DNA from: Candidatus Bathyarchaeota archaeon
Lineage (GTDB): Archaea; Thermoproteota; Bathyarchaeia; Bathyarchaeales; Bathycorpusculaceae
Assembly (NCBI GenBank): GCA_963739305.1
Contig: CAVTZU010000015.1
Span: forward strand, 1-64,000
DNA length: 64,000 nucleotides
Direction: 5' to 3'
Shown here: positions 1-18,247 of the stretch, piece after piece
Numbering within the stretch: the stretch's first letter is position 1
Layout of the letters: every line of letters begins with the position of its first letter
The notes under the pieces: model-generated
What the model saw: only the letters and a program-made list of their open reading frames with translations
The model's database searches: none
What the model was told of the DNA's origin: nothing
Translations under genes and position numbers: made by a program

Positions 1-18
1 CTCACAGACTCGACCACG

Positions 19-255
19 ATGCCCAGAAAGACGTTCTACGCTTGTCCGCACTGCATGTCGAAGATAGACCTTCAGGTCGAAGGCCTCAAAGTCGTTGATG
101 TGAAAGCGATGGAGTATGCCAAGGTCTTCGACTCACCCGCTAAATGCGCTCACTACTCAGTGTTCGTGGACGCAATTTCCTTTGACATCCCTATTCCCGA
201 CGACTGTCTTGTCTGCCCCAAGATCTTGCAGTGCGGCACCAAGAAATACAGATGA
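19..255 (+). CDS. small Cys-rich (zinc-binding) hypothetical protein
   Basis: 78-aa ORF with CPHC, CAH and CLVCPKILQC motifs. Confidence 0.65.
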   Translation: MPRKTFYACPHCMSKIDLQVEGLKVVDVKAMEYAKVFDSPAKCAHYSVFVDAISFDIPIPDDCLVCPKILQCGTKKYR

Positions 256-739
256 ATTCCCCTCGAAAACTGAGCCGTAACACTGCGATTCCATTTTTCT
301 TCTCTTGAAAATGCTCATTGCTGTCACACTGATGCCCATTCATCTGGAGAAGCTTTGCTATTTACTGATATTGATATCTAAGGCGGAAATTTATGATTAT
401 ATATATTAACAGGAAAAGCGAAAAGAAAGCGCCATTCTGCCAAAAGAACCCTTTCTGAGCACAGAGGTTTCTTGATTTCTCTGAGAAATATATAAATCCA
501 TTAAAGAAACTGCGTTTGGAAGGTTGAACTCTTTCTAGTCCAGGTATATTTTCAAGCGTGACTTCTTCAATTTTTGAAAATGATATGCCCGACCTGGGGC
601 ACATTATAACAAACTCCAACGTTTGCTATGCCGAGTTCTGTCTATCGCGGGCTCAAAATGCAACGCGGGGATTGCCACTTCATCACACTCATATACCTAA
701 ATACTCGCACTTCAGGTATAATGATCAGGGGAACCTTTC

Positions 740-1274
740 TTGACTGATTTCCACGACACACTATTCAAAGGTAACGTCTTCAAAGAACTTGTCAAGGTGT
801 TATTCGAGAAATCAGGTTACTTAGTAATCCCTTATGGCTATGAAAATCAACTGGCGAGTGTTAAGGGCGAACTGGCCAAGACGAATGATTCGCTGACAGC
901 ACTCAAAATAAGATCCTCTCCAGACCTACTCGTCTATGACAACCAAACAAAAGACGTGAAACTAGTCGAAGTTAAAATGTCTTCATACCCATCTCCTAGA
1001 CTAAATCGAAACACATTTGAGAACTACAGGAAGTTCTGGGATGACGCGATTCTTATCATGGTATTACCTTTTGAAAAACGTATTTTACGCGCAAGAGATG
1101 CACAACCTCGGTGTAAAGGAACAATATGACCCTAGAACTGACTTCAAAGAAGTCCAAGATATTTTTCAGAGACTCAACCTTGATGACCTCAAAAATTACG
1201 CGAAGATAGCTCGCAACCTGATAGAAGCAATGAAGAAAAAACCACTTGATGAGCCGGAAAAACAGTTTCAATAG
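740..1274 (+). CDS. PD-(D/E)xK nuclease-fold protein, split by one frameshift
   Basis: ORFs 740-1129 and 1017-1274 join across TTTTGAAAAA (~1069-1078); motif SPDLLVYD...KLVEVK. Confidence 0.6.
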
Positions 1275-1437
1275 TTTCCATTCATAACCCACTGACGTTG
1301 TTTGGCTCTTGCCTAACTTTCGCGTACGCGACCATTTGTGTCTAGATGCGGTTTGGAGGAAAGTTCTATTCCTAGAATTGTCAGAATGAGATAGATAGCA
1401 ATGAGCAAATCAACAAATCGAAATCTATGTATTCAAC

Positions 1438-1800
1438 TTGCGTTTTCCTGATTTTTCTAGAGATAATGTTTTACGAGGCGCTCGAACACTAAGCAGAAAA
1501 CCAGTAATCTTCAATGGACGCAAGTTGGAATACCCTGAAAATATGGTTTTCTTTGCTGAATATGATGATAAGACCGATGAAATTCAAGTTATCTTGATAA
1601 CTGCAGAAACAGAAATACAAGAAATCTACAGTGCGAATAAACAGTTATTTGCTTCGACTTCTATTTTGGAGAAATACCTTCCTGATTTGTTCTTTGAAAA
1701 TCTTATCCTGACAAGTGAACCTATTGAGTCTGGGCACAAAATAAGTTTGAATAAAGTTCCTAATTTGGAAACAGCAGAGAAGATGATTTTTCATGAATAG
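1438..1800 (+). CDS. hypothetical protein, possibly of viral origin
   Basis: AT-rich 120-aa ORF; ARTLSRKPV...YPENMVFFAEYD loosely recalls viral head-assembly proteins (weak). Confidence 0.4.
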   Translation: MRFPDFSRDNVLRGARTLSRKPVIFNGRKLEYPENMVFFAEYDDKTDEIQVILITAETEIQEIYSANKQLFASTSILEKYLPDLFFENLILTSEPIESGHKISLNKVPNLETAEKMIFHE

Positions 1801-1815
1801 TTTTTTTTGGGTTTG

Positions 1816-1831
1816 GGGGTAAAGTTTTATC
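1816..1831 (+). repeat. dispersed 16-bp motif GGGGTAAAGTTTTATC, copy 1
   Basis: exact copies at 23778-23793 and 24464-24479. Confidence 0.85.
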
Positions 1832-1958
1832 AAGAATCCTGACCCCTGAGCATCAGCATTCTATGAACATTTTTCAGGACAGATTTCAGTTTCCGCAGTT
1901 ATTCTCTTCTTCAATGCGGTTGCCAATACAAGTTAGCGCGCACGTTTGTCTGCTCAGG

Positions 1959-2183
1959 TCATTGTTTGTGGCCGCATTCTGGGCAAAAACGTGCTGAGAC
2001 TGGAATTCTGTTGTTGCAGTTAGGGCAGATTTTTAATACCAGTTTGGTTCGTAGCAATGCCCCGCAAAAATTACAGTAGACTGAAACTGAGGGAACTTGC
2101 CTGCTGCAACTTGGGCAGGTCAAGTATTGCCCAGATAAAGGAAGGGGAATCAGAACCCAAGCTCCAACATTCAATCCGTCCAC
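1959..2183 (-). CDS. double zinc-ribbon protein
   Basis: CPSC..CNFCG..CPNC..CPECG. Confidence 0.75.
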   Translation of the reverse strand: MDGLNVGAWVLIPLPLSGQYLTCPSCSRQVPSVSVYCNFCGALLRTKLVLKICPNCNNRIPVSARFCPECGHKQ

Positions 2184-2365
2184 TTCGATTTAATAGAGAA
2201 CGTCCTGTCTCTTTTCTCTTCTCATTTGTTTCAGTGTGGTCTCTCTATGAAAGCCTACATTAGAATTCTGTCTCAAACGCTTTCTAATAGCAGTCTCTCA
2301 TCGTCGATAGCAAAGAAGATTAACAAAGAATGCAGAGAGAAAATGAAGCTTGACCGTAGAGGGAG

Positions 2366-2581
2366 GTGAAAACGTTGACGACGATGACTGTTGAACTGGA
2401 CTTGGACCGAATGGAGAAAATGAAACAAGAAGTGCTGGAGCTAATTGGAAAAATGGTAGAAGAATATGGGAACGTTTCTGTTATAGAACTAGAGATGGCG
2501 TTGATAGAAGGGCTGTTGAAAGTAAGAGAACTTGGCATAAAAAAGACGGAAGACGAAAGTGAAGAATCCGACGTAGTTTAG
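2366..2581 (+). CDS. small acidic helical hypothetical protein
   Basis: 71-aa ORF preceded by a GGAGG RBS-like sequence. Confidence 0.55.
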   Translation: MKTLTTMTVELDLDRMEKMKQEVLELIGKMVEEYGNVSVIELEMALIEGLLKVRELGIKKTEDESEESDVV

Positions 2582-2652
2582 AGACAGCTAGTGCTTACAT
2601 TTTTCAAAACACGAAAAACCCCATATAATATCTATAGGGGAAAATCCCTGTT

Positions 2653-3402
2653 TTGCCTTTTCGAATAAACATGATACTGAAAGACCGAAAACAATCAACA
2701 ATGCTAAGTCATATAAGACGAAGAGGGGAAATGCTGACTGGTGGGAAGACGAAAGAGCTGACGAAATTCAAGCGTTGGGCTGATAGCCATCGTTCAGGCC
2801 GTGGTTTGCTGTGCCACTTCTACATGATTGAGGGAAAGAAACAGAAACAATACTATACGAAGCCTGACTACGCGTATTTCAACATATTCTCCGATACTTC
2901 TGATTGGATAATCAAGGGCACCACAGGACACGGAATCACAAGCGAAAGGGGAAAAGTTTCGCAAATTCCCTGCCTAAATTGCTATCAAGTCAACGATGAC
3001 TTCTACGATGCTCTTGACAGACTCTCGAGTGAAGGAAATCAGAAATATGAAGTAGGAGTTGTTTTTGACAAGCAGGAACTGAAGAGGTCCTTTGGTGAAG
3101 ATAATGTTATGGATGTCATTCCATGGACTCATGAACATCGCCGTCCTTCACCAGATGAATGCTGGCACTATGACATTCCCAAAAAGAAGATGGCTCTATG
3201 GCCATTCAGTTATTGCAATGTTGTTCGAGTCAGAATTAGACCATCTGCTTTGTACGGAATGCCAATTAAGGCGATTCCTAGCAGTGCTATGATGGGATTA
3301 CTTGTGAGGGAGAATGGCTACAAACATGAGACGATGGCAAAGTATCTGCGGAAGAAAAAGTGGGATGCTATTGACGAATTTGAGGTTTTCCCGCTGCTGT
3401 GA
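2653..3402 (+). CDS. hypothetical protein, possibly AbiGi/ART-fold-like
   Basis: 249-aa ORF; the LCHF...IKG...CLNCY...YEVGVVFDK pattern resembles AbiGi-like proteins (weak). Confidence 0.5.
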   Translation: MPFRINMILKDRKQSTMLSHIRRRGEMLTGGKTKELTKFKRWADSHRSGRGLLCHFYMIEGKKQKQYYTKPDYAYFNIFSDTSDWIIKGTTGHGITSERGKVSQIPCLNCYQVNDDFYDALDRLSSEGNQKYEVGVVFDKQELKRSFGEDNVMDVIPWTHEHRRPSPDECWHYDIPKKKMALWPFSYCNVVRVRIRPSALYGMPIKAIPSSAMMGLLVRENGYKHETMAKYLRKKKWDAIDEFEVFPLL

Positions 3403-3423
3403 GTGAAAAACCTAAGTCAATGA

Positions 3424-4418
3424 CTATTTTCGTTTTCTGAACAGCTTCACCCCATCGACATCCAGATGACAAAGTCAAAACCTTGTTCTATGAGCTTCGC
3501 TGCTTCATCAACAGTTTTTGCAGTTGCGCAAACATAATCTCCTGGGAAGTCTGCCAAACCCTCAGCCAGATGAATGTAGATGAGAGTGTTTTCGAGTCTT
3601 CTGTGCCCGAGAACATACTTGACACGGAAAATATCTCTTGTCTTAATGTAAGTCATCGTTGCAAACCAGTGGCGCAGATCGTACAATCTTATTTTCAAAA
3701 GCTCAGCGTCCTCAAACTTCCCGTAAGCTCTCTGTCTGTAATCTCTCCAGTTTTCTTTTATCTTGCCCGCTGAACCAAACAGTCTTTTGTCAAGAGTGAC
3801 AATTCGTCTTCTATGAACATAGTCTCTAAGAATATCTGCAGACAATTTCTGAAGCTGAATCGTACGTTGAGCGCCAAGCTTACTCGTTGGAACGTTTATT
3901 CTGCCGTTTTCTAAGTCAATGTTCCTAAGCGTAAGCTTCGCAATCTCGTCAGGTCTAAGACCATGTTTGCTCAGGTTGAAGACTGCCGTGTAAACCCATC
4001 CGCAGCAAGCAATGATCGTGTCGATTCTTTCCTCAGTCGGGATATCAATCACAAACTCTTCGCTCTTCAGCTTCTTCGGCTTTCTATAACAGATATCATT
4101 GGCACAGCAAAAACGCTCATACGCTTCAAAGAGCTTGTTTTTGTAAACATTCTTACAGTTCATAGAATAAATGAATCGTTCAACGTCACCAGGAAGCTGA
4201 AGATTAACATGTTTGCCCAAGCATGTCAGTCTGCTCCAGATTGCTTTTTGATTAGCTTTGCTCAAATGCTGGAGTTTAGCTACGGTCTTTACGATAAGTG
4301 CAAAATCATTAATAGGCTGAAGGGATTCTAGACTCTGCGAAAGGGGCTGTCGGCTAGTTTGGTCTAGGCTTGGAGACTTGGGCTCTCTAGACCCCGGTTC
4401 AAATCCGGGCAGCCCCAT
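3424..4418 (-). CDS. tyrosine recombinase/integrase overlapping tRNA-Pro antisense; frameshift near C-terminus
   Basis: GLRPDE, SKLG, YDLRH, LGH, TLIY catalytic motifs; shifted frame ends DVDGVKLFRKRK*; first 25 codons are the tRNA antisense. Confidence 0.9.
4301..4314 (+). promoter_or_regulatory. putative BRE/TATA promoter of tRNA-Pro inside the integrase ORF
   Basis: CAAAATCATTAATA about 30 nt upstream of the mature tRNA 5' end. Confidence 0.5.
4343..4417 (+). tRNA. tRNA-Pro(TGG), intron-less
   Basis: acceptor GGGGCTG/CAGCCCC, anticodon arm GGAGA-CTTGGGC-TCTCT, T arm CCCGG-TTCAAAT-CCGGG. Confidence 0.93.
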
Positions 4419-4468
4419 GAAATGCTTATAATTTGACGCATATCAGATTGGTTTCAAAGGATGAATCC

Positions 4469-5029
4469 ATGAGTAGAATGCTGCTTCTCGTGCCAAGGAT
4501 GTACACCGAAAGCGAGGTCAAGAGACTCGTGTCAGTTGTCCCTGAGGATTTTGGGCAAAAGACTCAAGAGTTCTGGAGCTACGTTGAGGACAAGCTCAAG
4601 GTCTTCGCTGGGAGGATCCAGAGAGTCTACCGAGATGAGATCTGTCAAGGCGGAGAAGAAGGCCTTGCTATCCTGCCTTCTGTGCAGCATGAAAACTTTC
4701 TCATAGTGAAAAAACTCGTTGAGAACGGTGCCGTGTTCGAGGCAACGGAAGATCCTCTACTTGTCGCGGAGTCGGAGTCATGGCGTGACATGACTAGGCA
4801 GAATCCTTTGGACATTGTGTCTCTTGAAATGTTCCAGGATTCAGTCCGAGAAAGAGACGATTACGTTTCGAGGAGGATTAACGAAAGCCTCCTTGATGAG
4901 GAAACGGGAGTGCTCTTTGTAGGGCCGACGCGAACAGTTAACGTGGACGAACGCACAAAGATAATAAAGGTTTGCGGTTTTGACCCAGCGGACTACTTGA
5001 GGTCGTGGCAGGTTCAGTTGCACCTATAG
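4469..5029 (+). CDS. hypothetical protein; its 3' end is the integration target
   Basis: 187-codon ORF now ending WQVQLHL*; pre-integration end WQVQLNLKL* is reconstructable from 10671-10697. Confidence 0.8.
   Translation: MSRMLLLVPRMYTESEVKRLVSVVPEDFGQKTQEFWSYVEDKLKVFAGRIQRVYRDEICQGGEEGLAILPSVQHENFLIVKKLVENGAVFEATEDPLLVAESESWRDMTRQNPLDIVSLEMFQDSVRERDDYVSRRINESLLDEETGVLFVGPTRTVNVDERTKIIKVCGFDPADYLRSWQVQLHL
5009..5025 (+). repeat. attL CAGGTTCAGTTGCACCT
   Basis: 16/17 identical to 10671-10687. Confidence 0.85.
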
Positions 5030-5941
5030 ACTTTTCCACTGCACCTGCATACAAACCACAGATAATCCAAGACCTAATCAATTTCGCAATAGACATGAAG
5101 CAAAACGGCAAAGCCGAGGCAACAATATCCTCACGAACCAGAATTTTGAGACAACTCGCAAAGATGGCAGACCTCAGAGACCCCGAACAAGTCAAGACCA
5201 CCCTTTCGACACGCCAAACATGGAACAAACGGACAAGACGCAGAGTAGCCGAAACCTACGACGCATTCCTAAAATTCCTTGGTATCAAATGGACAAGACC
5301 GCGCTACATTCCAGAGGATCGACTCCCATTCATACCTACCGAAGCCGAAATTGACCAACTAATAGCCTCATGCGGAAGCCACACAGCAACGCTATTACAA
5401 ACACTAAAAGAAACTGGAATACGAATATCAGAAGCAACCTTCCTAAAATGGACTGACCTCTCATCCGAACAGAAAACACTAAACATCACACCAGCCAAAG
5501 GAAGCAATCCCAGACTCTTACGAATATCCGACAAACTTCTCAACATGCTAAACCGAATACCACGAACTAACGAAACGATATTCTCAACAAACATAGCAGG
5601 ACTGAGAACCACATTTACAAAAAGCAGAAAACTAGCTGCCAAAAAACTCGAAAACCCAAGAATCCTCAGAATATCATTTCACACTTTCCGACACTGGAAG
5701 GCAACAATGGAATACCACAAAACCAAAGACATCATACACGTAAAACAAATACTAGGACACAAATCCATAAACAACACAATGATTTACATCAACATCGAGC
5801 AAGCCCTATTTCTAACAGAAAACGACGAATGGACATGCAAAACAGCCAACAGACATCAAGCAAGCAACAGCACTAATCGAAGCAGGATTCGAGTACGTCA
5901 CCGAAATGGACGGAACTAAACTATTCAAAAAACGCAAATAA
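5011..5941 (+). CDS. integrase C-terminal fragment int(C); frameshift at ~5849
   Basis: GIRISE, PAKG, HTFRH, LGH, TMIY; shifted frame ends LIEAGFEYVTEMDGTKLFKKRK*; strongly A/C-rich codons. Confidence 0.92.
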
Positions 5942-5975
5942 CCCTCCTCTTTTCTTTAACCATCGAAAACCAAAG

Positions 5976-6906
5976 CTACATGTTATAAGCTTCGAAAAGA
6001 GCACGATTCTCCGAATAGACTTTGAATCTATCGGCGAGAGGTGGAGAGTCTATCTTTAGATTTCTTTTCAATTCATTCGCAAATCTTTCAAACTGCAGAT
6101 TCAGCGCATCCCACCCGAAGGTCTTAAGCATAAAGAACTCGGTTTGCACGCAGTGTGTGAAGGCTATTCTTTTGAGGCAACCGTCAAGATTATCTTTTAC
6201 CATTTGTCCGTACAATCTAAAAAACAGATACGCATCCTGATAGGTTACCCAATCGCGAAGTGTCTTTAGATAGTGAGCATGTCAATTCGTACCGAATAAG
6301 GCTGTTCATGCCGTTCTTTTTCTAGCTCACTTTTCGCGGACTCTAAGCAGGCTTTGATGTTTGGAAGGTGATATTTGTCCGCATAATCCCAACCAACAGC
6401 TTTCGAGAAGCTATCAGAAAAACCCCCCGTTGGTCAAGATAGAAGTTGACTGGCGGAAGAAGAAAACGGTTTCGTCTTTTGCTGCATACGAAATCGTTCA
6501 CGTAAGCGTTCAAAACTGCATCATGCGTCTTGCGCTTCGGATGTTCTAGACAGACAAGCGTAGCAATTGAGCTGAACACAGAATAGTAAGACTGTACTAT
6601 TTTCCAAGCCGCAAACCGCAATCTTTCATCGATATTATCCAAAGGATAGTGCAGAGCACACTCATGATACCAGCAGTTTCTAAGGTTTCTAAAGTGCACA
6701 GTCTCATCCTCGCTGTCATCCCTTCTTGGGGCTCTTCCTGCAGGAATAAGTCTCAGAAGCATTTGTCTGCATGACTCATCCCAATCATTCACTTTCCTCA
6801 TGTAGAGGTGACCGATGATATCTGCAATACTTTTCAGATACCGTTCGTGCGTATTCAAATATCGCTCTCTGAAAACTTCAGGCAACGAGTCAAGGAATTT
6901 CACCAT
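5976..6906 (-). pseudogene. HEPN-like protein, frameshifted
   Basis: QSYYSVF...KTH in 6343-6921 and LRDWVTY at ~6243-6263 continue toward ORF 5976-6215. Confidence 0.55.
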
Positions 6907-7212
6907 AATGCACCTTTCCAATCAGCGCAGTACAAAGAATATTTGAACCCTCTAATTTATAAGAACAATTCCAGAGCATGTGCGAAAAATCGTTGGCTCG
7001 TGAGCCGTTCGGCTCACTCGCACGTTCCAGACGATAACGCAAAGCCAAACCAACCGTACAATAAGCATTTCTGCCTGTCGGTCTCGCATCACGCTCGCCC
7101 TTCAAGCACATAGACTCAAAACAACAACTAGTGCGTGCTTATCAACCATGAAACGTGGCACTCACACGCAAGGTCACAGGTTTTTTATTAAACTTCAAGC
7201 TATTACCTACGC

Positions 7213-8190
7213 ATGTCAGCGAAATTTGCTGTTTTTGACGTGTCCGCTCAATTTCTAATGGATGTTGCAAAAGAGGTCGCTTCTTCGCCTCATCCACTTA
7301 ACAAGGATATTTTGCTGGATAGCTTTGATAAGAATCAGGCTTATACATCGAACGCCATCGCCGAATGCCTCCAACTCGGTCTTTTCAATGAAAGAAACGG
7401 CGAATATGTACCAGCCGACAAATATAGAGATTTGATTAAGCGATCTGATAGGTCTCAATTGCATTTGGTCTTGAGGCAAGCGTTGCAGAGCTATCCACCT
7501 TGTCTTCTTTATCTTGATTTCGTTAGCAAAGGATATTCATCAGAACAGTCGGCGAGAATGACCGCAGGAATCTTCAGAATACAGTCTCCAAAGGAAAGAG
7601 TGGAGAAAATGTTTAGGAATTGGGGACTTCAAACTGGTTTAATAGCTTCTGATACTTCTGGAAAACTCTCCATCCCAGAAGGAGAGAAGGGATTGCCCAA
7701 TGAATACATGGAAAGTCTAATGAAAGCTTTGAGGGCAGACCTGCAAGCCAAGATTTTCCTTATTGAGACTATGAGTCCGTCTTCTTACAAGTATCTTACC
7801 GAAAATGGCATCGAAATAGACGACCTTTCAGACGCATTGGTTAACTATGAAAATGACCCTAAGACTTCTGCCAACAAAGCGAGCCAAGTCTTCGAACATT
7901 TCCTTTTCAAATTTGGGGAAGACGTTGGAGCAAATATCGCAAAAGGAAACGGCATAATTCAATATGCCGATATAATCCAAACTGAAAGAAGCTCTGACTT
8001 TTTAGTAAAACACAAGCATATCTGTTACGGTATCGGAGGAATTAGACTCATGGCTCATCACGACCCAGATAAGGAAACGGGTAACCCTTGGATTTTCACT
8101 CCTCAAGGAGCAATCATCAGCACCCTAATTGTTCCCGCAACTATACGAAGCATTTACTTGTACTGGACGGAAAAGAAACAAGAGTTTTAA
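7213..8190 (+). CDS. winged-helix-like N-terminus plus C-terminal HEPN/Abi-C-like domain
   Basis: 325-aa ORF; RLMAHH fits the Rx4H HEPN signature. Confidence 0.6.
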   Translation: MSAKFAVFDVSAQFLMDVAKEVASSPHPLNKDILLDSFDKNQAYTSNAIAECLQLGLFNERNGEYVPADKYRDLIKRSDRSQLHLVLRQALQSYPPCLLYLDFVSKGYSSEQSARMTAGIFRIQSPKERVEKMFRNWGLQTGLIASDTSGKLSIPEGEKGLPNEYMESLMKALRADLQAKIFLIETMSPSSYKYLTENGIEIDDLSDALVNYENDPKTSANKASQVFEHFLFKFGEDVGANIAKGNGIIQYADIIQTERSSDFLVKHKHICYGIGGIRLMAHHDPDKETGNPWIFTPQGAIISTLIVPATIRSIYLYWTEKKQEF

Positions 8191-8212
8191 ATATTGACAT
8201 AGACATGTTAAT

Positions 8213-8953
8213 ATGGGTATTAGGTTGAGTGAAACTGAGACGGTAACTGGGTTTCTGCCTCCGCAAGGTGTGGTGGTATGGTATGACATATTGCTTGGAC
8301 TTCTTGAAAACAGGCAGATTTCGAAAGTTGACAGGGCATTTCTGCAAAACCAAGAGCCCAAAATAGCAAGTGGCAATGAACATAAGCTGATAGCAGGATT
8401 GAAGTTTCTGGGTCTTATCGACAAAGACGGCAACGCCACAGAAGCGATGAATAGTCTGAGTCTAAAAGGTGAGAAACGTCGGGAAAACCTTGAAAAAGTT
8501 GTTCGAAAGGCTTACTGTCTTTTGTTTGAAAAGGTTAAGATAAAGCTCGAAGAAGTTGACTCCGACACTCTCATTAACTCGTTCAAGACTGATTACAAAA
8601 TGAAGTCTATAACGACAGCAGAGCAAGCCGCTCGGATTTTTGTCTTCTTAGCTCAGCAAGCTGGAATCACTCTTTCACAACCAATACTAGATAGACTGTC
8701 TGTATCGGTCGAAAAAGCAAGGAGAGTCAGCGGCATTGCCAAGAAGCCTAGAGGGGTAAAAAAGAAAGACGAAGAAAAACTTGTAGAGACTGAAGAAGAA
8801 ATACCAGAGAAAGGAACATACGTGGGCAGACTCGGAGACAGTATTCTCATCAAATTACGGAAAAGTAGTGACAAAAGTATAAGGGAAAAAATAGCAAAGC
8901 ATGCAAAAACACTTATTGACTTATATGTTGAAGGAGAAGAGGAAGGAAGCTAA
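8213..8953 (+). CDS. DUF5343-like protein
   Basis: GLKFLGLIDKDGNAT...KAY...FVFLAQQAGI pattern. Confidence 0.6.
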   Translation: MGIRLSETETVTGFLPPQGVVVWYDILLGLLENRQISKVDRAFLQNQEPKIASGNEHKLIAGLKFLGLIDKDGNATEAMNSLSLKGEKRRENLEKVVRKAYCLLFEKVKIKLEEVDSDTLINSFKTDYKMKSITTAEQAARIFVFLAQQAGITLSQPILDRLSVSVEKARRVSGIAKKPRGVKKKDEEKLVETEEEIPEKGTYVGRLGDSILIKLRKSSDKSIREKIAKHAKTLIDLYVEGEEEGS

Positions 8954-9003
8954 TGCAATTCTCCATCAGCCTCTGTCACTAGACGCGCGCAATTCAACGT
9001 CTC

Positions 9004-9156
9004 TTAGGTTGAACCTCGTCCCCCACACACGGGACATTTTAGCAACCCCGTTCCACCGCAATGAGTGCAAGCAGAACCGAAGTATACCCTACCACTTCCG
9101 CCACAGACTCCACAATAAACACTGCCAGAACCTTTGCATGTTCCGCATTCAGTCAT
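9004..9156 (-). CDS. 50-aa DnaJ-type cysteine-rich zinc-finger mini-protein (not in ORF track)
   Basis: MTECGTCKGSGSVYCGVCGGSGRVYFGSACTHCGGTGLLKCPVCGGRGST*: four CxxCxGxG; upstream GGAGG. Confidence 0.85.
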   Translation of the reverse strand: MTECGTCKGSGSVYCGVCGGSGRVYFGSACTHCGGTGLLKCPVCGGRGST

Positions 9157-9282
9157 TTTTGTGACATCCTCCTATCAACATCATTCTCACACATGAAATA
9201 AAAGATTTTCTGAAAGGTTCTTCATCATTGAAAATAGGAAAGAAAGGAGACAGACCTGCTCACGAACACGAACAAAAGCACG

Positions 9283-9588
9283 TCAACAACCAGAACAAAT
9301 CCCGTTCTTCCAAGCATAAAATAGAGCCCAATACGTACGCCTTCGGTTCTCACCAACCAAACCCCGTTCTGAAAGGTACTGCTCAACAAACGCGTTAAAT
9401 GACTCAACACTACGACAATGTGCCACATCATCAAAATTCAACCAACGTTTAGGCTCTCTACGACGTTCAGAGCTACCGCTACTCAATCCTACCACCCACG
9501 GCGTCAACGTAATTAGGCAAACCTGATTCGTCAAACTCATCATCGACAAACCACTTCTGATATGAAGGGTCGCCAATATCCCTAGCAA
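9283..9588 (-). CDS. small hypothetical element protein (true start probably near 9440)
   Basis: C-terminal ~50 aa look protein-like (FNAFVEQYL...YWALFYAWK). Confidence 0.35.
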   Translation of the reverse strand: MLGILATLHIRSGLSMMSLTNQVCLITLTPWVVGLSSGSSERRREPKRWLNFDDVAHCRSVESFNAFVEQYLSERGLVGENRRRTYWALFYAWKNGICSGC

Positions 9589-9640
9589 TGACTCGCAATG
9601 AGAAGATCACAATCACGCTCAAAAATCTCCCACACTCATG

Positions 9641-9669
9641 TCCTCGGAGACATAAGCCTTCCCTTCATT
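9641..9669 (+). repeat. 29-bp partial duplicate of the element leader
   Basis: 28/29 identical to 10392-10420. Confidence 0.85.
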
Positions 9670-9772
9670 AGCTTGTCATGCTCCAATATCACGTAAAGCG
9701 CGCGCAACAAGTCTCATCTCTCTTCTTTGTACTCACTCGTTGCGACAAGTTTTTTAGTTTAACCACCAGATA

Positions 9773-10177
9773 ATGAAATCTGGTGAAAACATGTGTCCAG
9801 TGATTAACAAAGACGACTTCAGAAAACTGATTCCTCCCGACCTTGAACGTAAATTGAGATATGAAGAGGACCTTCCAAATCAAGAATTGCATATCATTGC
9901 TGTAGAATTTATCGGAGGCGTAGAATTCGCGGAACTCCGACGAATCGTCAAGGAACTCGGCGGCACATATTTTCATAAAGAAAAGAATTCTTATTTCAAG
10001 ATTTCCTTAGGTTCGCGTGCTACGCTAGAGCATGACAACAAGTTGGAATTAGCCAAACATTTTGAACTTTCAGAAAGATACGAAGAGGCTGCATCAATCT
10101 ACGAGTCAATGGACATGTACAAAGAGGCGGAAATGGCCAGACAGCGCGCGAGAGAGAAAGCAAAGAAGCCATCATAA
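9773..10177 (+). CDS. hypothetical protein with TPR-like C-terminal helix pair
   Basis: 134-aa ORF; AKHFELSERYEEAASIYE. Confidence 0.65.
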   Translation: MKSGENMCPVINKDDFRKLIPPDLERKLRYEEDLPNQELHIIAVEFIGGVEFAELRRIVKELGGTYFHKEKNSYFKISLGSRATLEHDNKLELAKHFELSERYEEAASIYESMDMYKEAEMARQRAREKAKKPS

Positions 10178-10389
10178 GCGCAGGCGCAAGGCGAACGACG
10201 ACGCAACATCAGTCGCCACAGACACCAACGAACTGGAAACAAGTCTTAGATCAAGACGCAGAACCAAGATACACGAACAAATAGAGACTGACAGCGTCAA
10301 CAGAACCGAACTTGTCTAAAATAGTGACCAAGAACGCCAATGCGACCTATGGATACAAGGACGACTAAAATTAGTGATGACAGCGACAT

Positions 10390-10496
10390 TCTCCTCGGAG
10401 ACATAAGCCTTCCCCTCATTTGAAATTCAAGAGGAAAAGCATGAAAGCATCACATACGCAAGCCAATCATAAATCTATGCGGAAGCTTGCTATTAG
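10390..10496 (+). promoter_or_regulatory. conserved non-coding leader upstream of int(N)
   Basis: first 50 nt are 43/50 identical to the minus-strand copy starting at 49338; two inverted repeats. Confidence 0.75.
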
Positions 10497-10564
10497 CATC
10501 ATATGAGGAAGGCATATTGTCTCCTCGTCCTCACAACGATAAATTGTGAAATCAGGTAATATAC

Positions 10565-10682
10565 ATGACATACCAAACAAACGAAAACAATTCTCGTAGA
10601 AGGTCCGACGAAGCTAGGAAAAATCCCGAAGAAGAAATACAGCAAAAACAAGAATTACTAAGGCTAAAGACAGGTTCAGTTG
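10565..10682 (+). CDS. integrase N-terminal fragment int(N)
   Basis: MTYQ...ELLRLKT-GSV; the GSV codons are the att core and match the GSV that begins int(C). Confidence 0.8.
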
Positions 10683-10688
10683 AACCTG
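10671..10688 (+). repeat. attR, perfect inverted repeat CAGGTTCA-GT-TGAACCTG
   Basis: direct repeat of 5009-5025; followed by the displaced host gene end AAACTATAA. Confidence 0.85.
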
Positions 10689-10789
10689 AAACTATAATCT
10701 TTGCCATGAGAACTGTAATATCTTGCCGGACGACATGCCAGTCGGTTTGGTCTTCTTCTCCAAGGTCTGATTACGTTCAACTTCTTGGC

Positions 10790-11515
10790 TCAGGTTTTGG
10801 CGAGATCTTTCAACGAGTCCACTTGCCACACAGAGAGGTAGAGTTCTTGTCTGAAGGTTTTTCCGGTGAATTCCTTCTTCAACAGTTTTAGCACTCGCAA
10901 GTTCACATCTTCTGGTATGTCCCAGTTGCTCGAATGGTTTCTCTGCTGCAGATTTGCAAGAGTTTCGTCCGCAAAAGTCTCGTATGAAGCTACGTACAAG
11001 GACTTTGTGGGTTCGATCACATCTCTCAGGTCCTGTTCTGATTTCCCCCGGTGAACACGTTCGTATCCTTGCTGTTTCAGAAGCTCATGATAAGCCTCTC
11101 TAACAGGGTCTCTAGAAGCAGCGTACAAGGAAATCATAGCATACCGACTCACTCGACAGATCTCTCCCAGAACCTTTTGCCATTCAGCTACTAGATGAAG
11201 GATATGAACGGCAACTGTGATGTCGAACGTCTTGTCTCTGAACGGAACCGAACGCACGTCGCCGAGAATCAAGTCTTTCACGCCTTTCTCCTTCGCCTTG
11301 CCCATCATTTTCCTGCTGATGTCAACTCCCACAACGTTGAATTCTGCTTTCTGCAACGGCTCGGCAAACCTACCCGTTCCAACCCCAACGTCAAGCACTG
11401 CCTTGCAGTCCTTAAGCTCCAACGTTAGAGCCTCAATCAGTCGGGCCATCACGTTGTTCGGTAAGGCACGGGTCTTGTCATAGACTTCTGCGACTCTGTC
11501 AAACGAAACGCTCAC
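10790..11515 (-). CDS. class I SAM-dependent methyltransferase
   Basis: VLDVGVGTG, GVDIS. Confidence 0.92.
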   Translation of the reverse strand: MSVSFDRVAEVYDKTRALPNNVMARLIEALTLELKDCKAVLDVGVGTGRFAEPLQKAEFNVVGVDISRKMMGKAKEKGVKDLILGDVRSVPFRDKTFDITVAVHILHLVAEWQKVLGEICRVSRYAMISLYAASRDPVREAYHELLKQQGYERVHRGKSEQDLRDVIEPTKSLYVASYETFADETLANLQQRNHSSNWDIPEDVNLRVLKLLKKEFTGKTFRQELYLSVWQVDSLKDLAKT

Positions 11516-11682
11516 AGTTACACCTCAACACTCTCAATATTATTGTAGACCACTTTTCGTACAGCGAAGAGGTCTACATTATTAGAATTTCCATCACTCC
11601 GACTCTTCTTTTTTGCGTTTCGCCAAGACAAAAATTGACTTGAAAAAACGTTTATCAAGCGGGCGATTATCACTTACCCGCT

Positions 11683-12054
11683 ATGAGCGACAAGGAATTA
11701 GCCGCGTTAAGGGAAAAGAAATTGCGGGAGCTTCAAAAGAAATTCGGCGAAAAACGAACCCAACCCCAACAGGTTAACAAAGATGACGTATTGAACAAGA
11801 TCTTCAAAGACAGAGCATGGGAAGTGTTCAACGCGGCGCTCAGTCAGTTCCCCGATGCTACAAGCAGGGTCAGAGAAGTGCTGGTGAAGCTTGCCTCATC
11901 CGGCAAACTGAAAGAGGTAACTGGCGAAGAACTTTTCGTTTTTCTGAGGAAACTGGGGCTAGACGTCAAATTGAACACGAAGATCACATATGCCAGCCAT
12001 GGACAACTCAGATCGCTTGAAGAAAAAATGAAGGAAGAACTGCAGAGGACCTGA
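11683..12054 (+). CDS. PDCD5-related DNA-binding protein
   Basis: DKELAALREKKLRELQ N-terminus; 123 aa. Confidence 0.7.
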   Translation: MSDKELAALREKKLRELQKKFGEKRTQPQQVNKDDVLNKIFKDRAWEVFNAALSQFPDATSRVREVLVKLASSGKLKEVTGEELFVFLRKLGLDVKLNTKITYASHGQLRSLEEKMKEELQRT

Positions 12055-14576: not shown

Positions 14577-15848
14577 CTACTCAGCTGGAACGGGTTTGCC
14601 TTTTCTTAGTCCTTTGAAACGGAGTTTTGCAGTCAGAATCTTCTCTGTCGCAAAGAGTCGCGATGCAATGTACATGACCACAAGCGTGAATACAGTCACG
14701 TAGACTATGCCGAGACCCGCAGTCAAATAGTCTCCAGTGGCGATTGCTTTGGATGCGAGGATTGGTTGACTGAAAGGAATTGCATAGAAAACTGCCCTGG
14801 CCCAGAAGGGCAACATGTTGATGTCCAAGTACATAAGCGCCAAGGCAGGAACGAACAGAAACGGATACACGTAACTGACGAGTGATTGTGCACTCCTCAC
14901 GTCTTGAGCAAAGGCAGACAGAATAACTGCTAGAGCTAGAGCCGAAAGAAGAGTCACAAATAACGAGACACCGAGGAGCAGATAACCGAAGGTTGAGGGA
15001 ACCAACCCCAGTGAGACCAGATCAACCGAAGGGGCTCCTGTTGAAATTGAACCTGTGAAGGACCCTATGTAATAACTGAAGCCGAACAAGTATGCAACTG
15101 CACCTATGCCTGCAACCACTATGGAACCCGAAACTTTTCCGGCGAGAATTGCGAAGCGGTCCATCGGCAAAGTCAACAGCGTCTCAAGAGTTTTCTCTTC
15201 TTTTTCCATAGCCACAGACGTTGCGGCGATCTGCATCGAATAGGTCAAGAGAATAATCATCGTAATAGGCAGGGCAAACGCTTGCGAAAGCACAAGACTT
15301 GAAAGCGCAGCTGCGCTGATGCCCTCAATAGGTTGACCTTTGACTATCACGGATGACTCTGGAACAAGTAGATTGGGCGCCAATTGTCTGTTGTACAGTT
15401 CAAAATAAGAATTGATCACCGTGGATCCCACGCTCTCAAACAATCCGGAACCGGAGAATACGCTATAGAACTTCACGTCCGCCGCAATTCCTCTTGTAAC
15501 GTTCTTGCTGAAATCTGCGGGAATTTCTATTATGCCCGTTGCGTTATTTTCTGACATCAAGGGAATTGCCTCAGTCACGTTTGAAACGTCCACTCGGATT
15601 GCCTTGACGTATCTGTTGAGAAAATCAATCAACTGCGTGGAGTTATTTCCCAGGTCATGGTTGACCACGAGCACCGTGGCCTTCTGAGCGCTTTCTTGAG
15701 CAGTCTGCACTGAAAAATTCATGATAAAACCCAGCACTGGAAACATGACCAACGGAACAACCAAGAACCCGACCAATATCTTCGGGTCTCTCATCAATTC
15801 TTTGAGTTCCTTCAGGAAAAAGGTGCCGTAGCCTTTAAGCAAAACCAA
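14577..15848 (-). CDS. ABC-2 permease (NatB-like)
   Basis: EKEEKTLETLLTLP; multiple TM segments. Confidence 0.9.
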   Translation of the reverse strand: MVLLKGYGTFFLKELKELMRDPKILVGFLVVPLVMFPVLGFIMNFSVQTAQESAQKATVLVVNHDLGNNSTQLIDFLNRYVKAIRVDVSNVTEAIPLMSENNATGIIEIPADFSKNVTRGIAADVKFYSVFSGSGLFESVGSTVINSYFELYNRQLAPNLLVPESSVIVKGQPIEGISAAALSSLVLSQAFALPITMIILLTYSMQIAATSVAMEKEEKTLETLLTLPMDRFAILAGKVSGSIVVAGIGAVAYLFGFSYYIGSFTGSISTGAPSVDLVSLGLVPSTFGYLLLGVSLFVTLLSALALAVILSAFAQDVRSAQSLVSYVYPFLFVPALALMYLDINMLPFWARAVFYAIPFSQPILASKAIATGDYLTAGLGIVYVTVFTLVVMYIASRLFATEKILTAKLRFKGLRKGKPVPAE

Positions 15849-16715: not shown

Positions 16716-17213
16716 ATGAGCTTGCCAAAGGTGAAGTTCACAGAAATTTCACAGGTAGCTGTAGTCGTCAAGGACTTGAAGAAAACCATCGAGAATTACT
16801 GGAGAATGCTCGGTCTGGGCCCCTGGTCAATCTACACCTTTGCCCCGCCGGACCTCAAGGAAATGATGTTGCATGGAAAACCGACCTCATACTCGATGAG
16901 ATTTGCCGAAACCACAGTAGGAAGTGTCATAATTGAAGTAATCGAGCCACTGGAAGGCCCCAGCATATACAGACAGTTTCTGGAACAGAAAGGTGGAGGT
17001 CCCCACCACATTGCCTGCTACAAGGTGCCAGATGTCCAAGAAGCCTTGACAAACTTCAAGAAAATGGGGATTGAAATTCTTCAGAGCGGCAAATTTGACG
17101 AAGTCGAATTCTATTATCTTGACACCGAAAGAACGCTTGGCGTCATAACGGAAATAGTGAAAGATGGCAAGATTAGGCCTCCAGAGGCATGGTATCCCGC
17201 TGAGAAAGAGTAG
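16716..17213 (+). CDS. VOC family (methylmalonyl-CoA epimerase-like) protein
   Basis: QVAVVVKDL, IEVIEP, GPHHIA, FYYLDT. Confidence 0.88.
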   Translation: MSLPKVKFTEISQVAVVVKDLKKTIENYWRMLGLGPWSIYTFAPPDLKEMMLHGKPTSYSMRFAETTVGSVIIEVIEPLEGPSIYRQFLEQKGGGPHHIACYKVPDVQEALTNFKKMGIEILQSGKFDEVEFYYLDTERTLGVITEIVKDGKIRPPEAWYPAEKE

Positions 17214-17221
17214 ACAACAAG

Positions 17222-18247
17222 CTAGCTGACGATTTCTTTAACTGTCTTGATTATCCGTTCCTCGTCAGGTATCACGACTTTTTCAAGCGCAGGACTGTAA
17301 GGAATCGGAACGTTTGGTGTTGCAACACGCCTGATCGGACAGTCCAAATAGAACAACCCTTCCTCAGCAACAATCGCCGCAACTTCGGAAGCAAAGCCGC
17401 ATCTTTCGTAGTCTTCGTCCACGATGATGAGTTTAGAGGTTTTCTTTACCGATTCAAGGATAGTCTTCTTGTCCAACGGAACTATTGTCCTTGGATCTAC
17501 TATCTCTATACTTATGCCTTCACATTCGAGTTTCTTCGCTGCGCTGAGGGCCTTGTGCACCATCAAGGACGTTGCCACGACCGTAACGTCTTTTCCTTCC
17601 CTCTTGATTTCTGATTTTCCGAAAGGCACCGTGTAGGGTTCTTCTGGAACGGGTCCTTTGACCGAAGTGTACAAACCCTTATGCTCGAAGAACATCACGG
17701 GATCCTCATCTCTGATTGCCGTTGCCAACAACCCTTTTGCATCGTATGGCGTTGAAGGAACAACAATTTTCAGTCCTGGCACATGTGCGAAAATAGAGTA
17801 TAGACATTGAGAGTGTTGAGCTGCAAAACCAAACCCAGCGCCTATCACCGTTCTTATGACCATCGGAACCTTCGCTTGCCCGCCGAACATATATCGCATT
17901 TTAGCTGCCTGGTTGAAAATCTGATCCATGCAGACGCCGAAAAAGTCCACAAACATCAACTCAACCACAGGGTGCAATCCTGTAGCTGCTGCCGTCGCTG
18001 CCGCTCCGATAAAACCTGCTTCCGAAATTGGAGTGTCTCTCACCCTTTCAGGACCGAATTTCTTCACGAATTTCTCGGCAGGAGTCACGCCGAATGGACC
18101 GCCGCCGTAAAAAACTTGAAGGTCTTCACCCATCAAAAAGACCTTGTCGTTCCTTTCCATCTCCTGCATCAATGCTTCGGTTATAGCTTCCTTGAACGTC
18201 AGTTCCCTTTCCTCTTTTCTCTCAGCCATGCTCTTCGCACTCCTCAA
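17222..18247 (-). CDS. TPP-dependent acetoin/2-oxoacid dehydrogenase E1 beta
   Basis: MGED, DTPISE, AQHSQ, FFEHK. Confidence 0.93.
   Translation of the reverse strand: MRSAKSMAERKEERELTFKEAITEALMQEMERNDKVFLMGEDLQVFYGGGPFGVTPAEKFVKKFGPERVRDTPISEAGFIGAAATAAATGLHPVVELMFVDFFGVCMDQIFNQAAKMRYMFGGQAKVPMVIRTVIGAGFGFAAQHSQCLYSIFAHVPGLKIVVPSTPYDAKGLLATAIRDEDPVMFFEHKGLYTSVKGPVPEEPYTVPFGKSEIKREGKDVTVVATSLMVHKALSAAKKLECEGISIEIVDPRTIVPLDKKTILESVKKTSKLIIVDEDYERCGFASEVAAIVAEEGLFYLDCPIRRVATPNVPIPYSPALEKVVIPDEERIIKTVKEIVS

Follow-up and report, generated by a model that had tools for sequence, protein, structure and literature searches.

Can an archaeal mobile element that divides its own integrase gene on insertion take the end of a protein-coding gene as its target? 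The question is raised by a locus in the first 64 kb of contig C15 (hereafter the window), which belongs to a Bathyarchaeia bin of 36 contigs, 97% complete and 7.8% contaminated. We put at roughly 0.88 the probability that positions 5021-10682 of the window are a 5.66-kb cryptic element whose integrase gene was split on insertion into a host protein gene. It is labeled a cryptic integrated element because no capsid, replication, or conjugation gene was recognized in it. The principal features of the locus are given below, with att denoting attachment-site sequences and Int(N) and Int(C) the two portions of the integrase.

4469..5029, plus strand: target (host) gene, 186 amino acids in the occupied state, ending ...RSWQVQLHL before the stop codon; 188 amino acids in the empty state, ending ...WQVQLNLKL
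5009..5025, strand not applicable: attL core, CAGGTTCAGTTGCACCT; covers host codons Q181-L184 and is read as integrase residues (A)GSV(AP) in the -1 frame
5005..5919, plus strand: Int(C), tyrosine recombinase open reading frame (ORF) with no ATG and with a GTG at 5005 from host codons; PF00589, 1.8e-19
5021..10682, strand not applicable: integrated element, 5,662 bp, exactly the stretch missing from the empty site of metagenome locus L119
10565..10682, plus strand: Int(N), ATG and 38 codons into the core, MTYQ...ELLRLKTGSV
10671..10687, strand not applicable: attR core, CAGGTTCAGTTGAACCT, which together with G10688 is a perfect 8-2-8 palindrome

The direct repeat that the initial annotation had placed at 5009 and 10671 was found at those coordinates. 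It reads CAGGTTCAGTTG(C/A)ACCT at 5009-5025 and 10671-10687, with 12 nt exact and 17 nt when one mismatch is allowed. The perfect 8-2-8 palindrome claimed in the same annotation is read at the attR copy with its next base (CAGGTTCAGTTGAACCTG), and the L119 core is also palindromic. The core is likewise coded in two frames as had been proposed, once as host codons Q181-L184 and once as integrase residues; taking the host gene as reference, the Int(C) ORF is in the -1 frame and opens within the repeat. At up to one mismatch the 12-mer has four copies in the window, a number reached in 0 of 100 shuffles. By itself this repeat statistic is weak, and the matter is settled by comparison with relatives.

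Metagenome locus L119 has an 88%-identical target gene with tRNA-Pro(TGG) ahead of it, the same as in the window. Positions 2102-2787 of this locus match window positions 4341-5025 at 89.4% identity and positions 2771-3534 match window positions 10671-11433 at 87.2%, the overlap of the two alignments being limited to the 17-nt core. Because the L119 flanks join at the core, window positions 5021-10682 constitute a 5,662-bp insertion, and the border repeats together with a relative joined exactly at the repeat identify it as a site-specifically integrated mobile element. The L119 core, CAGGTTCAGCTGAACCTG, is a perfect 18-nt palindrome, and the window's attL core was aligned with those of both empty and occupied relatives. 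Crossover would have taken place somewhere within the 12-nt identity of 5009-5020 and 10671-10682, inside which the exact point cannot be placed. The initial annotation had predicted that element-free relatives would join 5020 to 10683 and that the restored host gene would end in WQVQLNLKL. Both predictions are borne out by L119, whose target protein has exactly this C-terminus, and by protein P0123 (87% identical to the target protein), which ends in the same way. In genomes of the same genus, matches to the right flank (68-76% identity) are dispersed, so that synteny reveals no empty site there.

The empty site also decides between the insertion and two other explanations of the locus. The repeat could have arisen by chance, with 5009-10697 being ordinary chromosome that includes a resident recombinase gene; 12-nt exact repeats are frequent by chance in 64 kb, and the region is unmarked by GC content or by a hallmark virus gene. 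This explanation is refuted by the L119 site ending exactly at the repeat, and the four matches against 0.40 expected and an attL junction common to independent metagenome contigs also speak against it, so that its probability is negligible. The second possibility is that this integrase and another at 3447-4418 lie in one island of ~10.4 kb that arrived once at tRNA-Pro together with the 186-amino-acid gene. The two integrase genes do diverge from a center formed by tRNA-Pro and this gene, a search of 10 same-genus genomes found the gene in none of them, and the bin contains two copies of the block. L119, however, has tRNA-Pro and the 186-amino-acid gene contiguous with the outer flanks (window positions 1-303 and 10671-11433) and carries neither insertion. 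Since both genes are present there without either insertion, we regard them as backbone that received two separate insertions, and a single arrival as highly improbable.

Seventeen metagenome loci with the target gene were found, of which L133 is without the gene end and L135 is distant (26%). The other 15 were classified as follows.

L119, L126, L128-L132, and L134 (8 loci): native-type end, no integrase in view
L120-L122 (3 loci): same attL, then int(C) at 78-80% identity over 282 amino acids
L123 (1 locus): same attL, then int(C) at 95% identity over 131 amino acids, up to the contig end
L125 (1 locus): 38-residue integrase remnant
L124 and L127 (2 loci): core followed by ~20 nt resembling the integrase gene, nothing more

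Loci L120-L123 are independent occupied junctions that share the window's attL. A second copy of window positions 3424-5126 is present in the same bin on contig C13, at 95% identity and with the same attL; it has tRNA-Pro, a target gene with 99% protein identity, and, of the integrase, only 41 codons, after which the DNA is unrelated. The two contigs can be compared over a longer stretch (C13:1456-5686, loci L003 and L013, against window positions 1-5126), in which the left-hand element differs in the middle, and the start of contig C15 coincides exactly with the start of the sequence common to C13. The C13 and C15 versions could be two strains in the bin or a true duplication. With decayed copies on C13 and at L124, L125, and L127, decay of Int(C) appears to be common. 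The source genome has no close paralogue of the integrase, the next best match being one of 41% on contig C24.

The C-termini of target protein homologues point to repeated use of the site. The database holds 77 such homologues, three of them without the conserved DYLRSW region. The remaining 74 were sorted by a regular expression, with five rows assigned by eye, into 53 native-like ends, 12 in which the host frame continues into int(C) (~202 amino acids, ending ...QPKT), 6 that end ...AF, and 3 with the window-type end Q[LM][HN]L. Of the 74 homologues in which the conserved C-terminal motif is kept, 21 thus have element-derived tails, making this gene a recurrent target. The core sits directly after W180, the last near-invariant residue in the homologue alignment, and in an AlphaFold2 (AF2) model of the target protein (predicted local distance difference test, pLDDT, 93.9) its position is the end of the last helix. 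Insertion is tolerated because the core follows W180 at the end of that helix and the change is limited to NLKL becoming HL, in agreement with the earlier claim that integration alters just the last host residues.

No Pfam match to the target protein was found at E<=0.01, and a Foldseek search of the model against the PDB gave nothing at E<=0.001. Structural comparison with VIA-align gave matches to ChaN (2g5g, Z 9.4, 156 residues aligned, root-mean-square deviation 4.2) and HopBA1 (5t09, Z 9.0), all others having Z <=6.9, which places the predicted structure nearest to ChaN/HopBA1/EreC-type proteins. One homologue carries the source name 'pheromone shutdown protein TraB', and the target protein likely has a ChaN/TraB-like fold, as judged from the model. 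The gene is patchily distributed, being present in 0 of 10 same-genus genomes, in 2 of 61 genomes overall including the source genome, and in 19 of 401 class-level genomes with identity of at most 49%. No integrase was found in the 1.5-kb flanks of the target gene in those class-level genomes.

Is the integrase gene itself split by the insertion? Joining 10565-10682 to 5021-5919 by script gives a single 339-codon ORF reading ...ELLRLKTGSVAPIDF..., which upholds the in-frame fusion of the ORF at 10565 with the recombinase that the initial annotation had predicted. The attP site would accordingly lie inside the integrase ORF, and integration would separate its Int(N) portion from Int(C). The XerA profile NF040815 aligns from Int(C) residue 26 to residue 266 (model positions 2-256 of 263). 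The stretch from the core to residue 26 lacks any ATG, GTG, or TTG, so translation must begin at or before the core; in the circular form, this open frame offers a single canonical start, the ATG at 10565. Once integrated, the Int(N) ORF continues outward to 10891 (108 codons), and this ORF, 10565-10891 on the plus strand, is antisense to the 3' end of a convergent S-adenosylmethionine (SAM)-methyltransferase gene (10790-11515, minus strand).

The same architecture is found in the two closest relatives that have both ends in view (10-kb flanks), in each of which int(C) is bordered on its 5' side by a direct repeat and the opposite end of the element carries a short N-piece in frame. The element at locus L022 (69% identity) is 4.8 kb long, with direct repeats of 17 nt, AGGCAGGTTGGGTTGAA, at 9999 and 14809. 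Its target is a stop/start junction (L022:8950-10011 and 14825-15736), with the TGA of the upstream HAD-like gene inside the core and the ATG of an Ftr gene (PF01913/PF02741) directly after attR. The 7.2-kb element at locus L023 (60% identity) has direct repeats of 13 nt, CAGGTTATGGAGA, at 9918 and 17135, and its flanks, 9762-9929 and 17135-17353, are the halves of a RidA gene (PF01042 positions 1-50 and 47-120) interrupted mid-gene at codon 56. The N-pieces of the window, L022, and L023 elements end in ELLRLKTG, ELLGTKAG, and EQILKAG, respectively, summarized as ELLxxK[AT]G, and their cores start (A/G)CAGGTT. In a control scan of 68 related loci for stretches of at least 13 nt in the integrase 5' region that are repeated in the DNA downstream, a CAGGTT-bearing repeat was found in L022 and L023 only, with unrelated repeats in seven other loci. 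More distant integrases (45-52% identity; loci L024-L101, e.g. L024, L031, and L042) are 400-450 amino acids long with an N-terminal zinc ribbon, CPxCGS...QRWLCRxCGYRFS, and have no CAGGTT-type repeat at their 5' ends; many of these zinc-ribbon integrase genes are close to contig ends.

Sequence conserved with the L022 element also lies ahead of Int(N).

10509..10545, plus strand: promoter-like region, with a 21-nt block, AAGGCATATTGTCTCCTCGTC, identical in the L022 element

A TATA-like sequence, GATAAATT, is centered ~24 nt ahead of the Int(N) ATG and is conserved with L022, suggesting that this region may act as a promoter. A 29-nt direct repeat of 97% identity lies inside the element at 9641-9669 and 10392-10420, near the Int(N) end, and this repeat and the 21-nt block at 10509-10529 are candidate regulatory or arm-type binding sites. 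Among the gene calls for integrase homologues, 31 of 119 start with L or V and 19 of 119 start at an internal methionine, MKxNG, and many homologue ORFs open right at the core position (LASSV, LQAGS, LAGW). These database gene calls are consistent with int(C) fragments, as far as their sequences indicate.

Some of the same observations would suit an element that is real and has an unsplit integrase, the att site immediately preceding a complete int gene with its start at GTG 5005 or another codon, in the manner of pNOB8, and the 36-codon ORF being incidental. The region homologous to XerA (residues 26-266) is complete in Int(C) as read from 5005, every occupied site has an in-frame GTG or TTG just ahead of the core, and Int(N) is poorly conserved with no unsplit form found. 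However, these GTG and TTG codons are host-derived and would be missing from the circle, which leaves ATG 10565 as the only canonical start. In addition, the in-frame N-piece is found in L022 and L023 as well, and the conserved promoter-like block is ahead of Int(N), not ahead of the core. On this evidence we consider an unsplit integrase improbable and prefer an integrase gene split by integration.

The Int(C) in the window is not intact at its 3' end. Residues 1-282 of homologue P0002 align in frame 1 (window positions 5005-5850), and residues 278-311 align in frame 2 (window positions 5837-5938).

5837..5941, plus strand: displaced integrase 3' tail in the next frame, ending ALIEAGFEYVTEMDGTKLFKKRK before a stop codon; conserved family C-terminus

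The frameshift falls after about codon 280, in the last ~35 codons, and because the P0002 alignment switches frame, the family tail ...LIEAGFEYV...KKRK is out of frame here. With its Int(C) frameshifted ahead of the conserved tail, this copy of the element is probably immobile.

Several observations weigh against an insertion that split the integrase gene. Recombination by this copy cannot be assumed given the frameshift, which might conceivably be an assembly error. No free or circular form of the element and no unsplit integrase with this Int(N) was found: a search with the 40 residues of the N-terminal region among longer proteins gave four candidates, none of them scoring, a negative result that is weak because the search relies on exact 5-residue words. 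Int(N) is short, of low complexity, and poorly conserved except for its last ~8 residues, and we estimate the chance of an accidental in-frame 36-codon ORF at ~5-10% per locus. The host gene is absent from all 10 same-genus genomes searched, and the bin, with its 7.8% contamination and 95%-identical C13 copy, may be a strain mixture.

We propose the following course of events. The free circle would carry one continuous tyrosine-integrase gene running from ATG 10565 through the core to about 5941, with the core site CAGGT-N8-ACCT in integrase codons 36-41. The integrase would recombine attP with a near-identical palindrome at host codons 181-186, after W180, with strand exchange within the shared CAGGTTCAGTTG, and integration would swap the last four host residues, NLKL, for HL. 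Int(C), with the whole recombinase fold and without a promoter or ATG of its own, would stay at attL, and the promoter and the 39-codon Int(N) would stay at attR, facing outward. The arrangement would then function like the 'suicidal' SSV-type integrases, with an enzyme that is itself canonical HxxR and XerA-like.

The class of the enzyme can be read from its predicted catalytic residues, R140, H226-x-x-R229 (HTFR), H252, and Y261, of which the histidine at the HxxR position is present in 116 of the 120 best homologues. Int(C) matches PF00589 at 70.6 bits against a cutoff of 27.1, as expected of a member of the tyrosine recombinase superfamily. Its best PDB sequence matches are XerA structures (5hxy, 1.2e-11; 4a8e, 2.2e-09), and its best NCBIfam match is archaeal XerA NF040815 (3.3e-25), at 89.2 bits and thus far below the equivalog cutoff of 220. 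The nine PDB matches at E<=0.01 include XerA, XerH, XerD, HP1 Int, IntI4, Gp33, and others; SSV1 Int is not among them, and its structures were presumably included in the PDB set searched. In the phage collection 230 records matched the integrase, all at <60% identity, the best archaeal one being Methanocaldococcus fervens tailed virus 1 (25.6%), and no fusellovirus was among the best 25 of the 230. An IMG/VR scan with Int(C) gave seven loci at 41-48% identity, with the close subfamily absent. By catalytic signature (canonical HxxR) the integrase is not of SSV1 type, and by its best matches it is XerA-like.

XerA is the archaeal chromosome dimer resolution recombinase and acts on a dyad-symmetric core site. 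The integrase resembles it in that XerA is its best sequence match in the PDB and NCBIfam, in having the canonical R/HxxR/H/Y residues, and in its dyad-symmetric core site. Unlike XerA, its gene lies at the edge of an insertion missing from a relative, is split, and has decayed copies. The initial annotation had classed the element with split integrases such as those of SSV1 and pTN3 and had noted that these characteristically target tRNA genes; the splitting on integration is supported, and the catalytic signature (HxxR, not KxxR) differs, as does the target. The SSV-type systems (SSV1 and SSV2 of Sulfolobales fuselloviruses, pTN3 and pT26-2 of Thermococcales) similarly have attP within the ORF and Int(N) and Int(C) at opposite ends (PMC8371274; PMC7253208), and Int(C) pseudogene decay is frequent among them (PMC7253208). 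SSV1-type integrases have R...KxxR...Y and pNOB8-type integrases R...YxxR...Y (PMC8371274), in contrast to the HxxR (H226-R229) found here. According to the same review, SSV-type att sites are 40-50 bp and lie in tRNA genes (PMC8371274), as opposed to 12-17 nt and codons 181-186 of a protein gene in the window. The tRNA-Pro gene is 590 nt from attL and intact. The SSV-type hosts in the review are hyperthermophiles (PMC8371274), compared with Bathyarchaeia here, and the Int(N) of the present element is also different in being just ~39 codons long and outside the conserved fold. The pNOB8-type gene stays intact after integration (PMC8371274), whereas the HxxR ORF in the window loses its start.

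Between its two integrase portions the element carries five cargo ORFs and an intergenic motif.

5976..6215, minus strand: cargo ORF, 79 amino acids, no family match
6343..6921, minus strand: cargo ORF, 192 amino acids, no family match
6996..7036, strand not applicable: intergenic motif of ~40 nt with hairpin GTGAGCC-gttc-GGCTCAC
7213..8190, plus strand: cargo ORF, 325 amino acids, no family match
8213..8953, plus strand: cargo ORF, 246 amino acids; DUF5343 (PF17278, 1.1e-06) and PADLOC candidate defence protein PDC-M34A (PDLC04589, 6.4e-10)
9773..10177, plus strand: cargo ORF, 134 amino acids, no family match

Profile searches of the cargo gave no match in PHROGs, none in NCBIfam, and the one candidate in PADLOC. 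The 325- and 246-amino-acid genes may form a two-gene candidate defence cassette. No protein-level similarity was found between the cargo of the window, L022, and L023 elements, their sole common piece being the 40-nt DNA motif. This hairpin motif recurs in the L022 element (97.5%), at L125 (93%), and at C15:108306, 110175, and 114026 and C25:16147, with some copies near other integrases. A second stretch, at window positions 7076-7142, recurs on C25, C30, C8, and C28 and at C15:54148. A search of window positions 1-12000 against Rfam returned tRNA only, leaving the hairpin motif without a family.

The neighboring integrase gene to the left of tRNA-Pro (3447-4418, minus strand; PF00589, 4e-16) has an ORF that extends across the entire tRNA-Pro(TGG) gene (4343-4417) on the complementary strand and an N-terminus beginning MGLPGFEPGS. 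L119 matches window positions 1-303, with the tRNA following 166 nt later, and because L119 is without the stretch at ~304-4340 (~4 kb) this stretch is taken as a second insertion. At its left border no partial copy of tRNA-Pro of at least 10 nt was found except for one 10-mer at 2942.

Integration at the 3' ends of protein genes is itself already described. According to the available portion of a study of thaumarchaeal elements, 14 of 68 are integrated in the 3'-distal parts of protein genes, with a short att and a replaced stop codon, and NitEve-E3 has an SSV1-like integrase split on integration (PMC6563490). These elements are alike to ours in their short att sites, their targeting of protein-gene 3' ends, and the one split integrase. 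They are unlike it in that, within that portion, protein-gene targets and the split integrase are described separately, and in phylum and integrase subfamily (PMC6563490). A 2021 review lists protein-gene targets for non-suicidal integrases, assigns the suicidal system to hyperthermophilic archaea, and raises the question of whether att sites in protein genes have the dyad symmetry required by tyrosine recombinases (PMC8371274). The available text of papers on the Bathyarchaeia virome and on Asgard mobile elements mentions integrases and no split ones (PMC10541130, PMC11529989). No split integrase in a protein-coding target turned up in a full-text literature search, supplementary tables being outside its reach. 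The splitting arrangement has so far been described mainly for tRNA-targeting elements of hyperthermophilic archaea.

The locus gives a concrete answer to the question of dyad symmetry, with an empty and an occupied site; the attB of L119 is a palindrome of 18 nt without mismatch, and that of the window an 8-2-8 palindrome. This palindrome is read in two frames at once and sits immediately behind the target protein's last invariant residue, and the split architecture is seen in a canonical HxxR, XerA-like enzyme of Bathyarchaeia. Bathyarchaeia are an abundant sediment lineage whose mobile elements, to our knowledge, have barely been described. The recurrent target gene is a ready marker for such elements in metagenomes, and the series of target sites provides natural material for the study of Int(N) and Int(C) pseudogene decay or recombination. 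It is possible, though on balance doubtful, that self-splitting arose or spread in a lineage of HxxR, XerA-like Bathyarchaeia integrases separately from the SSV1-type KxxR enzymes, with an (A/G)CAGGTT half-site in the integrase's own codons and variable second halves retargeting the elements to protein genes (3' end, stop/start junction, or mid-gene). Because Int(N) lies outside the fold and the conserved Ser-Trp codons of the target give an in-frame GTG or TTG, the host transcript could continue to serve for the production of integrated Int(C), in which case the split would be a promoter switch and not suicidal.

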